This document shows, piece after piece, positions 14,259 through 18,125 of a stretch of 52,289 nucleotides of DNA. Position 1 is the first letter of the stretch, and each line of letters opens with the position of its first letter. The notes beneath the pieces are model-generated. The model was not told where the DNA came from. It did no database searches and saw only the letters and a program-made list of their open reading frames with translations. The DNA is from a virus. Location of the stretch: IMG/VR virus record IMGVR_UViG_3300035502_000579; one strand, 5' to 3'. Position numbers and translations under genes: made by a program.

Positions 14259-15293
14259 ATGCAATTCAATATTCTTGGATTAGAGCTAACAAGAGCGTGT
14301 ACCAATAGGTGTAAATATTGTTATGGTAAAGAAAAACCTATTAGGGGAAATGCACCTGACACAGTAATTCGGTCTGCTCTTTAGTTTATGGATTCTCAAA
14401 CAGATGAAGGATTTCATGTATCGCTTCTTGGAGGAGAACCTTCTTTAAGATTAAAAAATTTTTTATCAATTTTAGATGAATTTAATTCTAATATTAGTTT
14501 ATCTTTAAATACTAATGGCCTTATTTTTACAGAGCAAATGTGTATTGACTTATCTAAATATAATGCACATTTAGCTATTTCTTTAGATGGGCCAAAAAAA
14601 GCCCATGATGAAAATAGAATATTAGCCAATGGACAAGGAACATATGATAAACTGATAGAAAAAATCCCTATGCTTTTAAATTATTTTCCTGATTCTTTAT
14701 GCCAAGCTACTTTCACTCCAAATACGATTCAATATTTGAGTGATTCTTATTTTTTAGCAAAAGAATTAGGATTTAAAGAATGGTATTGGGCGCCAGATTT
14801 ATATAGTTCAATATGGACAGAAAAAGAATATACAATTTTAAATAAAGAGTTAGATATTATTGCAAAAGACTATTTTAATCAAAATCAAATTCTTTATAGA
14901 GCGTTTTCATTGTCAGAACATTTCAATAAAGGAAATGCTCGTTTTCAACAAAATAAAAAATGTTTATTAGTAGACCCCGATGGACGTATGAAAATTTCTC
15001 GAATAAATGCTACTGTGGTACCTCCAGAAGAAGATGAAAAATGGTACATAGGCAATGTTTTAACAGGTGTAGATAACAATAAAATAAAAGCTTGGATAGA
15101 TAGATTTGGAGAGAATGCCGATGAATTGTATTATGCTTATAATACAAAACAAGAATGTAAAAATTGTCCAGCAAATAAAATATGTTATGATAGTGAGCAT
15201 TTATGTCCAAATCCTTTTTTATATTATATTCAAGCTAATCAGCCGAGGATGCAATGCGAATAGAAGAAAGCAATAATGAGTCACTTGATTTAA
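14259..15293 (+). CDS. radical SAM / SPASM-like enzyme, paralog B1 (TAG-recoded)
   Basis: SD AGGAAGGA then ATG 14259; CTNRCKYC (CxxxCxxC); C-terminal CKNCPANKICYDSEHLC; TAG codons at 14373 and 15261 read through to TAA 15291-15293. Confidence 0.65.
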
Positions 15294-16309
15294 TTTTTCC
15301 AATTCCATTTGAAAGAGTAGGAGTAGAAATAAATCAAAGATGTAATCTACATTGTAAGTACTGTTGGAATCAGAAATGGAACAATAGAGAGATTGAAGAA
15401 GAAAAAATACAAAAAATTTTTTCTGCTTTATATCAATCGTCATTAACTTGGGGAATTTCTAATAATCCTATTCATGTTTGCTTTTATGCAGCAGAGCCTA
15501 TGCTTTCAGCAGATTTGATTAAAAAAATTATAAAATATCCTTTTTATTATTCTTTTTTAACTAATGGTACATTGTTGGATAAAAATTATGACTGGCTAGC
15601 AGCAAGAAATCTTTCAGTTAGTGTATCTTTAGATGGCATTAAAGAAAATCATAATTATTTCAGAGGAGATTTTGATAAAATTGTAAATAATATTATACAT
15701 TATCCTTATTAGAATAATATAAACATTTCTATGACTGTAAATATCAAATCTCTTTCTTATTTATATGATAGTTTAGTTTTTATATATAATTTACCAATAG
15801 GATGTTTTGAATGCCATTTAAATTTACATGATGATTGGACTGATGATTTATTTTAGCAATATATTGATATTATATCTATTTTTATTGAAAATTATAAAGA
15901 TAAACTTGCTTTGCCTGGATATGAATTAAGTAGTCGTTTTTCTAATTATGGTAATGCAAATAACTATAAAAAAGATCGAGGCGGCCCTTTGTTATAGATT
16001 AATGTTGATGGGACTATGTTAATTGAAAAGCCTAATCGGTCATGTTTAATACTACCTGAAAAAAATAATTTATTTTTTGGGCATATTTTTGCAAATGAAA
16101 ATGGATTTTTATCTGCTTCTTTAAAATAGCAATATTTAAATTTTATGAAAGAAGAATATCTTAAATATAATTATATTTCAGATAATTGTCCAAATTGCAA
16201 ATATTCGTACATATGTTCTTAGAATAGAGATATAGAAGTATTTTTATATCCAAAAGAATGTTATCCTATATTAGAGAGTTTTATTTTGCAAGAGAGGTTC
16301 TGGAAATGA
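15254..16309 (+). CDS. radical SAM / SPASM-like enzyme, paralog B2 (TAG-recoded)
   Basis: CNLHCKYC motif; track ORF 15254-15712 continues through 5 TAG to TGA 16307-16309; C-terminal DNCPNCKYSYIC. Confidence 0.65.
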
Positions 16310-17505
16310 TAAATTATGAACAACTTACAAAAAATCTTCCAGTAGATGCAATCATTAATATAACAGACGAGTGTAATTTGAGATGTAAGTATTGTTTTAC
16401 ACATCCAAATCCTTCTATTATGAAATTAGACACTGGAATTGCAGCTGTTCAATGGCTTGTAGATAACTATGAAAAACGAGAAGATGATATGAAAAAAGAA
16501 GTTCATATTAATTTTTTTGGTGGAGAACCTATGCTTAGATATGAAGAGCTTATGGTTCCTCTTATGGAATGGACAGATAAAAATATTAAATTGTCTGGTG
16601 GTCATCAAGTTACTTGGGGAATGACAACTAATGGAACATTATTAACAAAAGATAGATTGCGTTATTTGGCTAAACGAGGAGATTTTCAAATTTTATTTTC
16701 TTGTGATGGAGCTCCTGAAACGCAAAATCTTCAGAGAAGAACTAAAAATGATGAGGATAGTTTTCCTTTAATTGATAAAAATATTGATTATTTATTAGAG
16801 TATTTTCCAGAAACAACATTTCGTTCTACTGTGACTCCTGAATCTGTTTCTATGTTAATGGATAATTATCTATATGCAAAAAAACGCGGTTTTAAAAATT
16901 ATTTTTGTATGCCAAATTGTAGGGAAAAATGGTCTTTAGAAGCTATTCAAGAATTAGGATATCAATTAAGCAATATAGGTTGGTTTATATATCAAGATAT
17001 TATTAATGACAGACCTATCTTGCGGTACAATGATATTTTTAGTTTTATGGTTAAATATATTACACAACCTAAAGAAAGTCTTACATATGACCATTGTGGT
17101 TTTGGATGTTCTTCGGTTGGAATTACTACAAATGGATTGATTACAGGATGTCAAGAGCGCAATACAAAAGATATAAATGATTTATTCTTTATCGGAGATA
17201 TTTATTCTGGAATTGATAAAAATAAGCATTTAAAGTTATTGGCACAAGCTGAAGATAAAGAAAGAAATAATAATCATTTAGACTGTGAGAATTGTCCAAT
17301 CAAAAATTTTTGTTCAGGACGTATTTGTCCTTCAACTTGTTATGATATGAGTGGGCAAGCAACAACTTCTAATGATATTACTTGCTATTGGCATATTATT
17401 TTATATAAAATTGCAGAAGCGATATGTGAGACAGCTGCATTAGAAAATAATAAAAAATTCCAAGATTTTTTATTTAATATTGGGAATACTTATTTATATA
17501 TGTAA
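16306..17505 (+). CDS. radical SAM / SPASM-domain enzyme, paralog B3
   Basis: ATG 16306 overlaps the upstream TGA (ATGA); CNLRCKYC motif; C-terminal CENCPIKNFCSGRICPSTC SPASM-type cluster; no TAG. Confidence 0.7.
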   Translation: MINYEQLTKNLPVDAIINITDECNLRCKYCFTHPNPSIMKLDTGIAAVQWLVDNYEKREDDMKKEVHINFFGGEPMLRYEELMVPLMEWTDKNIKLSGGHQVTWGMTTNGTLLTKDRLRYLAKRGDFQILFSCDGAPETQNLQRRTKNDEDSFPLIDKNIDYLLEYFPETTFRSTVTPESVSMLMDNYLYAKKRGFKNYFCMPNCREKWSLEAIQELGYQLSNIGWFIYQDIINDRPILRYNDIFSFMVKYITQPKESLTYDHCGFGCSSVGITTNGLITGCQERNTKDINDLFFIGDIYSGIDKNKHLKLLAQAEDKERNNNHLDCENCPIKNFCSGRICPSTCYDMSGQATTSNDITCYWHIILYKIAEAICETAALENNKKFQDFLFNIGNTYLYM

Positions 17506-17522
17506 AAAGAGGGGGGATAATT

Positions 17523-18125
17523 ATGGCTGATGGTGGATGCACAAATTCAACTTGTACAAATTCAACTTGTGCAACTTGTTTACCAACTTGTTATTCAAAA
17601 CAAACTTTTTGTATTATATCAGGACAATCGGCTTCTGATTACTTTAGTCATTCTTGGCCTGCTTCATTTGAAAAAGATCAAATTATTTATAAAGTATTAC
17701 CAAGGACTGTTTTTAATACGGCTTTTACTTATATTAACAATGCTTTGCATAAAGGAAATACTAAGGCTACTTCTTCATGGATGGGGACTGAAGAGACAAG
17801 AGAATTTATTTTTGCAGATAAAGTAAGTGAATTGATTGATGGATTATCTAAATTTAATAATGGATGTAGCATTGAAAAACCAAATAAAAATGATGTAATT
17901 TATGCAAGTTATTTTACTAAAATTTCAAAAGCATTATCTAATGCACAATTAAGCCCAAGCGCTTGCGATGATTGTAATGTTTCTTGTAATGTCACTTGCA
18001 ATTCATGCCAAGGGTGTGTAAACTGTCAAGGATGTAATAGCTGTCAGGGACATACAAGCTGTCATAGCCCCTGTCATCATCCTTGCCATAGTCCTTGTGA
18101 TACTCCATCTACTTCTACTAGTTAA
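17523..18125 (+). CDS. Cys-rich protein (Cys clusters at both termini; candidate rSAM substrate)
   Basis: SD AGAGGGGGG; N-terminus GGCTNSTCTNSTCATCLPTC; C-terminus CDDCNVSCNVTCNSCQGCVNCQGCNSCQGHTSCHSPCHHPCHSPC. Confidence 0.6.
   Translation: MADGGCTNSTCTNSTCATCLPTCYSKQTFCIISGQSASDYFSHSWPASFEKDQIIYKVLPRTVFNTAFTYINNALHKGNTKATSSWMGTEETREFIFADKVSELIDGLSKFNNGCSIEKPNKNDVIYASYFTKISKALSNAQLSPSACDDCNVSCNVTCNSCQGCVNCQGCNSCQGHTSCHSPCHHPCHSPCDTPSTSTS

Follow-up and report, generated by a model that had tools for sequence, protein, structure and literature searches.

Three radical SAM enzymes and a two-tailed Cys-rich protein form a putative protein-modification operon in a TAG-recoded phage

The DNA of IMG/VR virus record IMGVR_UViG_3300035502_000579, the 52,289-nt stretch that was analysed as a whole and is referred to here as the window, is AT-rich (~32% GC), with all sizeable genes on the + strand and only short open reading frames (ORFs) on the minus strand. 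When TAG is read as a sense codon, the region 14259-18125 (locus B) resolves into four tightly packed genes, which encode three radical S-adenosylmethionine (SAM) enzymes, rSAM1, rSAM2 and rSAM3, and a Cys-rich protein, Cys200; under the standard code, the in-frame TAG codons break the reading frames of rSAM1 and rSAM2. The features of the locus are:

14259..15293, + strand: rSAM1, a radical SAM enzyme (344 aa; CTNRCKYC; TAG codons at 14382 and 15261)
15254..16309, + strand: rSAM2, a divergent radical SAM enzyme (351 aa; CNLHCKYC; five in-frame TAG codons)
16306..17505, + strand: rSAM3, the proposed core maturase (399 aa; CNLRCKYC; no TAG codon)
17523..18125, + strand: Cys200, a Cys-rich protein (200 aa with 20 Cys residues; no TAG codon)
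17523..17612, + strand: N-terminal tail of Cys200, residues 1-30 (6 Cys; a CTNST repeat; ends in the family-invariant C-x3-Q-x-F-C)
17613..17963, + strand: predicted folded core of Cys200, residues 31-147 (three beta-alpha-like units with the pattern D-x-I-I-Y-A...L; one Cys)
17964..18125, + strand: C-terminal tail of Cys200, residues 148-200, and the stop codon (13 Cys; C-D-x-C-N, then CxxC/CxxxC repeats and the end CHSPCHHPCHSPC)

A preliminary description of this DNA had reported three consecutive radical SAM genes with the above cluster motifs, followed by a 200-aa protein with Cys clusters at both ends, and both observations were borne out. The Pfam Radical_SAM model (PF04055) matched all three enzymes above its gathering score of 29.5 (rSAM1: 54.7 bits; rSAM2: 33.2; rSAM3: 54.5), and in Cys200, whose terminal sequences agree with those reported, 19 of the 20 Cys residues fall within residues 1-30 and 148-200. 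Of the overlaps described between the genes, the ATGA shared by rSAM2 and rSAM3 is real and is associated with a Shine-Dalgarno sequence GAGAGG 8 nt 5' of the ATG at 16306 (none was found for the alternative rSAM3 start, ATG 16258), whereas the 40-nt overlap of rSAM1 and rSAM2 depends on readthrough of TAG 15261; were this codon a stop, rSAM1 would end at 15263 and the overlap would shrink to 10 nt. The ATG of rSAM1 is preceded by the Shine-Dalgarno sequence GGAAGGAG.

Cys200 comprises two Cys-rich tails that flank a core, in which three units with the pattern D-x-I-I-Y-A-x-x-F-x-x-L-x-x-A-L can be recognized by eye. AlphaFold2, supplied with a 40-sequence alignment, predicted the core to be confidently folded and the tails to be disordered (predicted local distance difference test, pLDDT: 87-97 over residues 41-140, <50 in the tails). 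Searches of Pfam, NCBIfam and PHROGs returned no match for Cys200 or for its isolated core, which has no known fold relative. Neither a signal peptide nor a hydrophobic segment was found in Cys200, and the formylglycine motif C/S-x-P/A-x-R is absent from it. Short tandem repeats at the DNA level (a 15-bp repeat in 2.3 copies in the N-terminal tail and a 12-bp repeat in the C-terminal one) underlie the CTNST and CNV[ST] units, which points to recent repeat expansion in the tails.

The Cys200 family is represented by 198 clusters (at 50% identity) retrieved with a core profile from among 1.84 billion representatives, and it carries no annotation; one match of the core profile, the 3658-aa adhesin P0275, was dismissed as spurious or repeat-level. 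The close homologs fall into 10 clusters with 57-67% identity to Cys200. At least three Cys residues are present in both tails of 99 out of 101 full-length representatives, and Cys makes up 23% of the tails vs 1% of the core. In the tails of these 101 members, CxxC is the most frequent Cys spacing (939 cases), followed by CxxxC (438 cases), and the residues N, S, D, G, T, Q and E predominate in between. The tails vary from 2 to dozens of Cys residues, from ~13 to >100 aa and in the type of repeat, CHxPC repeats being confined to the clade with three radical SAM enzymes. The family alignment also reveals invariant residues on both sides of the core (C6, C11, C16, C23 and C30 on the N side; C148, C151, N152, C155, C159, C162 and C165 on the C side), as well as two boundary motifs conserved throughout the family: C-x3-Q-x-[FYW]-C marks the junction of the N-terminal tail with the core, and C-[DN]-x-C-N that of the core with the C-terminal tail.

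rSAM1, rSAM2 and rSAM3 contain the cluster-binding motif CX3CX2C (residues 14-21, 30-37 and 23-30, respectively), which is invariant across all orthologs. The SAM-binding motif reads GGEP in rSAM1 and rSAM3 and AAEP in rSAM2, with AAEP or FTEP in the rSAM2 orthologs. The three had been described as tandem paralogs: they do share superfamily kinship, but not a recent duplication, since pairwise identities among them and the radical SAM enzyme of a second locus of the window (locus A, see below) amount to only 23-25%; judged by sequence, they are ancient paralogs of one superfamily and not recent tandem duplicates. Their distribution also differs: rSAM2 hardly occurs outside the clade of the window, a search of 5.8 billion proteins having returned only 9 clusters of homologs, each with at least 47% identity, as against 978 homologs of rSAM3 at E < 1e-10.

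In NCBIfam, the top match of all three enzymes was the PapB family (NF047865; rSAM1: 119.8 bits; rSAM2: 78.9; rSAM3: 164.4; cut-off 340), and further matches included the CXXX-repeat family, CcpM, QhpD and nif11-type maturases, with SCIFF maturases reported for rSAM1 and rSAM3. The second-best family of rSAM3 was QhpD (TIGR03906, 113 bits, cut-off 453), and the SCIFF maturase model (TIGR03974) scored 105 bits against it (cut-off 425). The CXXX-repeat maturase model TIGR04115 (cut-off 350) matched rSAM1 with 97 and rSAM3 with 81.5 bits and did not appear among the 25 best NCBIfam matches of rSAM2. Anaerobic sulfatase maturases (TIGR03942, cut-off 349) scored only 51.6, 35.4 and 64.7 bits for rSAM1, rSAM2 and rSAM3, respectively. 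The closest PDB entry to rSAM3 was CteB, a SCIFF thioether synthase (5wgg, E = 1.8e-18, residues 16-360 including the SPASM Cys residues), followed by an anaerobic sulfatase maturase (4k37, E = 4e-12). By these sequence comparisons, all three enzymes resemble Cys-dependent thioether or Cys-rich-peptide maturases best. No match to a PqqD-like RiPP recognition element (RRE; RiPP: ribosomally synthesized and post-translationally modified peptide) was found in any of them, and with cluster motifs that begin at residues 14, 30 and 23 there is no N-terminal room for such a domain.

The SPASM motif (TIGR04085), CX9-15GX4C ... CX2CX5CX3C ... C, ligates two auxiliary [4Fe-4S] clusters. rSAM3 possesses the full set of seven Cys residues (C264, C282, C327, C330, C336, C341 and C360, invariant in 10 of 10 sequences), with the spacing CX2CX5CX4C, in a region that aligns with the SPASM domain of CteB; no match to a stand-alone SPASM model was reported for it in the Pfam and NCBIfam scans. 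The completeness of the Cys set implies that rSAM3 binds two auxiliary [4Fe-4S] clusters. The count of four SPASM-type enzymes in the window, which would include the enzyme of locus A, did not hold, as the ortholog alignments of rSAM1 and rSAM2 lack the complete seven-Cys motif. rSAM1 retains C300, C303, C309 and C333 (CX2CX5C and one downstream residue, conserved in three orthologs) and rSAM2 retains C312, C315, C321 and C336, a reduced set that would correspond to a single auxiliary cluster, by analogy with what is generally known of anaerobic sulfatase maturase structures.

Analysis of related phages, in which the preliminary description had proposed to look for the same enzyme-substrate synteny, recovered the order of enzyme followed by Cys protein in every relative with enough sequence and in many phage contigs. 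A lack of conserved synteny, which the description had named as a refutation of its reading, is not what these relatives show. The complete order rSAM1-rSAM2-rSAM3-Cys protein is found in all four close-clade contigs that are long enough (the window, the 113-kb L002, L004 and L091), and in L092 the contig is cut, yet rSAM2 and rSAM3 are visible. The pair of rSAM3 and Cys protein is present in the deposited phage Phass-1 (OQ749652.1) and in L008, L010, L012-L019, L022-L024, L062 and L064; in gut phage contigs of ~130-150 kb it is usually flanked by lysis or PhoH genes on one side and by topoisomerase II on the other. The genes of such pairs are separated by 0-18 nt or overlap. The synteny was also followed from the side of the Cys protein, by exact-protein look-ups of family members; of the members reached solely from this side, 7 of 7 (P0002, P0004, P0008, P0010, P0012, P0200 and P0265) lie directly 3' of a radical SAM gene, represented in P0012 by a partial ORF with a SPASM C-terminus, in P0200 by a single rSAM3-like enzyme with an N-terminal extension, and in P0265 by two enzymes. 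The bacterial relatives of rSAM3 (80 genome loci, mostly Clostridia, at most 36% identical) adjoin small Cys-rich peptides including SCIFF, and a Cys200-type core was found beside none of them.

A single locus holds between one and four radical SAM genes, and in three clades additional maturases are accompanied by additional repeat types in the Cys protein: CHxPC and CTNST occur with rSAM1 and rSAM2, a second radical SAM enzyme is paired with CxC repeats (L027, L031, L061, L062 and L095), and the four enzymes of L013 with SWSG repeats. No simple correlation between the number of radical SAM genes and the number of Cys residues was seen across the loci.

We propose, with a probability of roughly 0.55, that locus B of this TAG-recoded gut phage is an operon that encodes a protein substrate together with its own maturases, the tails of Cys200 being cross-linked by thioethers to yield an uncleaved, protein-sized analogue of a RiPP. 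The relationship of enzyme and substrate, the thioether chemistry and the docking via the core are inferred from homology and gene association. According to this proposal, rSAM3 would be the ancestral and universally associated maturase, and rSAM1 and rSAM2 would be clade-specific accessory enzymes. rSAM3 would cleave SAM reductively and remove a hydrogen from a carbon atom within a tail residue; the thiol of an adjacent Cys would then be joined to this carbon, giving intramolecular thioether bridges of the sactionine or ranthionine type. rSAM1 and rSAM2 would probably act on the additional repeats of the clade, CTNST and CHxPC. The folded core probably serves as a docking handle for the enzymes, because they lack an RRE, and because, apart from Cys residues, nothing in the substrate is conserved except the core with its boundary motifs. 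As no protease or exporter gene was recognized alongside the locus in the loci examined (a ClpP homologue in L002 was the only protease nearby), the product would probably stay at full length, stapled at both ends, and could serve as a structural or effector protein that resists proteases.

Several observations weigh against this proposal. rSAM1, rSAM2 and rSAM3 score far below the cut-off of every curated NCBIfam family, and their chemistry could therefore differ from thioether formation. rSAM2, with its AAEP motif, and rSAM1 may be inactive or otherwise employed, both having lost most of one auxiliary-cluster Cys set. The link between extra enzymes and extra repeats is not universal, as Phass-1 has two radical SAM genes and its close relative L010 only one, with similar tails. 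The locus lies among genes for replication, tRNAs and nucleotide metabolism and not among structural genes, which gives no hint of a role. Finally, the tails are rich in Cys and His and might hold Zn, Fe-S clusters or other metals instead, and the invariant boundary residues C23, C30, C148 and C151 would suit a structural metal site.

Metal binding by the tails is the main rival explanation. In this case, Cys200 would hold Zn, an Fe-S cluster or, via CHxPC, Ni or Cu, and it would serve the radical SAM enzymes as a donor of clusters or electrons or as a scaffold, or have its metal center matured by them. The dominance of CxxC in the tails, a spacing typical of metal ligands, is what one would expect, as are the four invariant boundary Cys residues, the His-Cys-Pro repeats at the C-terminus and the presence of other Fe-S or anaerobic enzymes nearby, e.g. 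the class III ribonucleotide reductase in related loci. However, the number of tail Cys residues, the tail length and the repeat type vary in a way that is unusual for defined metal sites, the 40-sequence alignment did not raise the tails to a pLDDT of 50, and the partner enzymes resemble peptide maturases rather than cluster-assembly proteins; we regard this explanation as unlikely.

Somewhat less probable still is that Cys200 is a long precursor, from which the modified tails are cut off as ranthipeptide- or sactipeptide-like peptides active on bacteria after lysis, while the core acts as a giant leader or follower of the Nif11 or NHLP type. The tails do resemble RiPP core peptides, rSAM3 scores 105 bits with the nif11-type peptide maturase model, and its distant bacterial relatives adjoin SCIFF and other small Cys-rich peptides. 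Yet the surroundings of the locus, in the loci examined, show no recognizable protease or exporter and no GG-type cleavage motif, Cys200 has no segment that resembles a signal peptide, and the invariant motifs span the core-tail junctions with no linker.

That the radical SAM enzymes modify a nucleic acid or a small molecule, for instance in phage DNA hypermodification, with the Cys protein as an unrelated or accessory neighbor, appears improbable. The surrounding genes for DNA metabolism and tRNAs and the topoisomerase II that adjoins the pair in relatives would fit such a function, and phage radical SAM enzymes are reported to participate in thymidine hypermodification (PMC8989533). It is difficult to reconcile with the tight coupling of the genes and a partnership kept over a very wide range of sequences, with best homologs that are all peptide or protein maturases, and with the other kinds of Cys-rich protein that adjoin related phage radical SAM enzymes. 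The least credible of the alternatives is that the partner protein undergoes a formylglycine-type oxidation at Cys or Ser, for which the weak but detectable relationship to anaerobic sulfatase maturases (4k37; TIGR03942, 35-65 bits) could speak, but which is at odds with the missing sequence motif, the scores far under the 349-bit cut-off and the lack of any match to a sulfatase fold or family. Of the dedicated modification module with thioether or formylglycine chemistry that had been suggested from the sequence, the module with a Cys-rich partner is supported by maturase homology and synteny, and formylglycine is not supported.

Radical SAM/SPASM maturases that act on Cys-rich peptides (SCIFF, ranthipeptides, CXXX-repeat) are abundant in anaerobes, and the pairing of such an enzyme with a Cys-rich substrate is an already known kind of system. 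Literature searches returned no description of the phage setting, of a two-tailed substrate with a new core fold, of operons with multiple maturases or of the breadth among gut phages. Locus B also departs from classical RiPP loci, having no RRE, no short leader-core precursor (the putative precursor is 200 aa long and has a predicted folded center) and no recognized GG-type cleavage motif.

PapB, the maturase of freyrasin, comes nearest among the curated families, being the top match of all three enzymes at scores below those of members. Its model begins near CX3CX2C and has no long N-terminal domain, as is also the case for rSAM1, rSAM2 and rSAM3. In the PapB substrate, Cys motifs recur along the chain and the acceptor residues are acidic or polar; it is, however, a short leader-core peptide, in contrast to the 200-aa protein of locus B with its folded core and two tails, and it is served by one enzyme instead of three phage-encoded ones. 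The SCIFF system is related through CteB, the closest solved structure to rSAM3, and through bacterial rSAM3 relatives of ~25% identity that adjoin SCIFF peptides; CteB carries an N-terminal RRE domain of ~100 aa, whereas only 22 residues precede the cluster motif of rSAM3, and the SCIFF peptide has ~45 aa as opposed to the 200 aa of Cys200. The radical SAM/SPASM enzyme QhpD installs several Cys-to-Asp/Glu thioethers in QhpC, a protein that is left uncleaved, and by this analogy the predicted full-length stapled Cys200 probably resembles QhpC more than a classical RiPP; locus B differs in that it lacks a dehydrogenase context and that its substrate belongs to an unrelated family with repeat tails. 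The TIGR04115 CXXX-repeat system shares with locus B the arrangement of a radical SAM/SPASM gene followed by a Cys-periodic protein; no characterization of the chemistry of this family was found in the literature, where the mention of TIGR04115 that we found concerned pig gut microbiomes.

Phass-1 (L001), the closest deposited phage, encodes a homolog of rSAM3 (36% identical) followed by a homolog of Cys200 (29% identical), and like the window it recodes TAG to Gln, with tRNA-Sup-CTA. Unlike the window, it has two radical SAM genes and a 174-aa Cys protein without a CHxPC tail, and it displays no similarity at the nucleotide level; a nucleotide search of the window against deposited phages returned no match at all. 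Radical SAM enzymes are not mentioned in the Phass-1 paper. In the deposited sequence (10956-13692), the first radical SAM gene (10 TAG codons) and the Cys protein gene (3 TAG codons) are not annotated whole, and the second radical SAM gene is split into two "hypothetical proteins". Directly 5' of the radical SAM block, Phass-like loci contain a member of another family with no assigned function, consisting of 150-200-aa proteins with a K-I-F-D-Y-like motif at the C-terminus, of which no homolog was detected in the window:

10427-11008 of L001: member of the K-I-F-D-Y-motif family
5451-6014 of L008: member of the same family
5031-6004 of L010: member of the same family
649-1823 of L013: member of the same family
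4466-4957 of L015: member of the same family

L013 (1823-6775) has four consecutive radical SAM genes, followed by a Cys-tailed protein that ends in SWSGSWSGSWSG repeats, and P0200 (L093, 1463-2242) ends in SWGTSWTTSW. These Trp-containing repeats could be targets of other cross-linking, e.g. of cyclophane-type bridges.

Locus A, the other place in the window where a radical SAM enzyme and a Cys-rich partner had been noticed, proved to be just that, a sister system of locus B:

5983..7590, + strand: locus A radical SAM/SPASM enzyme (535 aa; 10 TAG codons; ~135-aa N-terminal extension)
7592..8179, + strand: Cys195, the Cys-rich partner (195 aa; 23 of 24 Cys residues in an N-terminal CXXX-repeat region; unrelated C-terminal domain)

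The enzyme passes the TIGR04115 cut-off (359.3 vs 350 bits) and is thus a true member of the curated family of CXXX-repeat maturases, with a CXXX-repeat protein as its neighbor. Cys195 matched no family in Pfam, NCBIfam or PHROGs. A likeness seen by eye between its C-terminal domain and the core of Cys200 was rejected, as hhalign gave a probability of 3% and aligned only the Cys repeats.

Long runs of closely spaced Cys residues (Cys ladders) are associated with radical SAM genes beyond these two pairs. In the 52-kb window only two ORFs contain a run of at least six closely spaced Cys residues, and each lies directly 3' of a radical SAM gene or block. Among 73 distinct phage loci, 35 have a Cys-ladder ORF within 1.5 kb of the radical SAM block, and the density of such ORFs is 0.19 per kb near radical SAM genes vs 0.021 per kb farther away, a ~9-fold enrichment. 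The neighbor of distant phage relatives of rSAM3 (25-33% identical) is often a different protein with a long Cys ladder. The partners range from 69-80 aa, through ~190-500 aa with 19 to 77 Cys residues, to 720-1025 aa, where the ladder is fused to large domains. Cys-ladder neighbors with up to 87 Cys residues were noted in the IMG/VR loci L046, L055, L060, L067, L073-L075, L084, L047, L049, L052 and L076. The partner in L047 matches tail-fibre PHROGs and that in L067 weakly matches a carbohydrate-binding module, which suggests that virion proteins may be substrates of radical SAM enzymes in other phages.

A wider generalization, which we offer tentatively and consider possible but on balance doubtful, is that gut phages hold a modular system for modification at the scale of whole proteins, in which a ~200-aa two-tailed family is stapled at its tails by one to four radical SAM enzymes docking on the core, maturases are recruited for each new repeat (CHxPC, CxC, SWSG), and related enzymes act on ladders fused to tail-fibre-like or other large proteins. 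If this were true, radical thioether stapling would be a general means by which phages harden their proteins, and if the stapled protein were a component of the virion or of anti-defence, it would represent a new phage way to stabilize proteins in the gut. Locus B itself would offer a folded-protein substrate that is modified at both ends and apparently uncleaved, and in the related loci nature would provide a series, with one to four maturases paired with different repeat types, that is useful for work on specificity and for enzyme engineering, as with PapB. It would also extend the auxiliary functions of TAG-recoded gut phages by a new class; gene calling with the standard code wrongly breaks the genes of these phages into fragments.

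TAG encodes Gln in the phage of the window (code 15), as judged from alignments in which TAG columns coincide with Gln in homologs of the Cys protein and of rSAM1. In L004 (CYAAqTLC) and L091 (CFDAqALC), a TAG codon occupies the position of the near-invariant Gln (Q27) in the C-x3-Q-x-F-C motif, and codon 335 of rSAM1, a TAG near the C-terminus, is aligned to Q in both orthologs. Phass-1 is assigned to a "Caudoviricetes code 15 clade" and carries tRNA-Sup-CTA genes. ARAGORN called 15 tRNAs in the window and no suppressor tRNA among them; a candidate is nevertheless located just 3' of the operon:

18193..18268, + strand: candidate non-canonical suppressor tRNA with the anticodon CUA and a cloverleaf fold

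Its minimum-energy fold is a cloverleaf (-27.3 kcal/mol) with the anticodon loop CUCUAAA, and it aligns with both annotated tRNA-Sup-CTA genes of Phass-1, including the tRNA-Gln-like U1, G73 and CCA end. The T loop (GGCAGCA) and the D loop are non-canonical, which is probably why neither ARAGORN nor Rfam called it as a tRNA. This element may be the amber suppressor of the window, or else a decayed copy of one.

The uneven use of TAG had also been pointed out, i.e. its presence in rSAM1 and rSAM2 and absence from rSAM3 and Cys200. This is true for the window, where TAG accounts for 7 of 28 Gln-type codons in rSAM1 and rSAM2 together vs 0 of 21 in rSAM3 and Cys200 (Fisher p = 0.015), but the pattern has no conserved meaning, since the relatives differ: the counts in rSAM1/rSAM2/rSAM3/Cys protein are 0/7/0/0 in L002, 3/2/0/1 in L004 and 14/11/7/3 in L091. 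The exception is rSAM2, whose orthologs bear TAG in 4 of the 4 genomes compared. A split of the operon into early and late genes by differential TAG recoding was rejected, as the pattern varies among relatives.

Upstream of the operon we found the following elements:

14101..14128, + strand: promoter-like site TTGATA-16-AATAAT, 5' of the tRNA-Ser gene and the operon (10 of 12 matches in a consensus scan; a pattern match only)
14150..14241, + strand: tRNA-Ser(TGA), called by ARAGORN, 17 nt 5' of rSAM1

The tRNA-Ser(TGA) is possibly co-transcribed with the radical SAM operon. Promoter-like sites on the + strand, situated before small genes and tRNAs, surround the operon (13711-13739, 14101-14128, 18133-18161, 18269-18297 and 18448-18476), several of them sharing the form TTGAyw-17-TGnTATAAT, and this suggests that the tRNA region around the operon is split into many short transcription units. 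Farther away in the window, an 801-aa ORF (28719-31124, +) has a middle third that looks, by eye only, like an intein or homing-endonuclease insertion (IGSYLGDG... LYMDDGS) in a host gene. Among the tRNAs called by ARAGORN, two are unusual, namely a tRNA-Asn with the anticodon ATT (8263-8337, +) and a 94-nt tRNA-Ile(TAT) (12127-12220, +), the length of which could accommodate an insertion.

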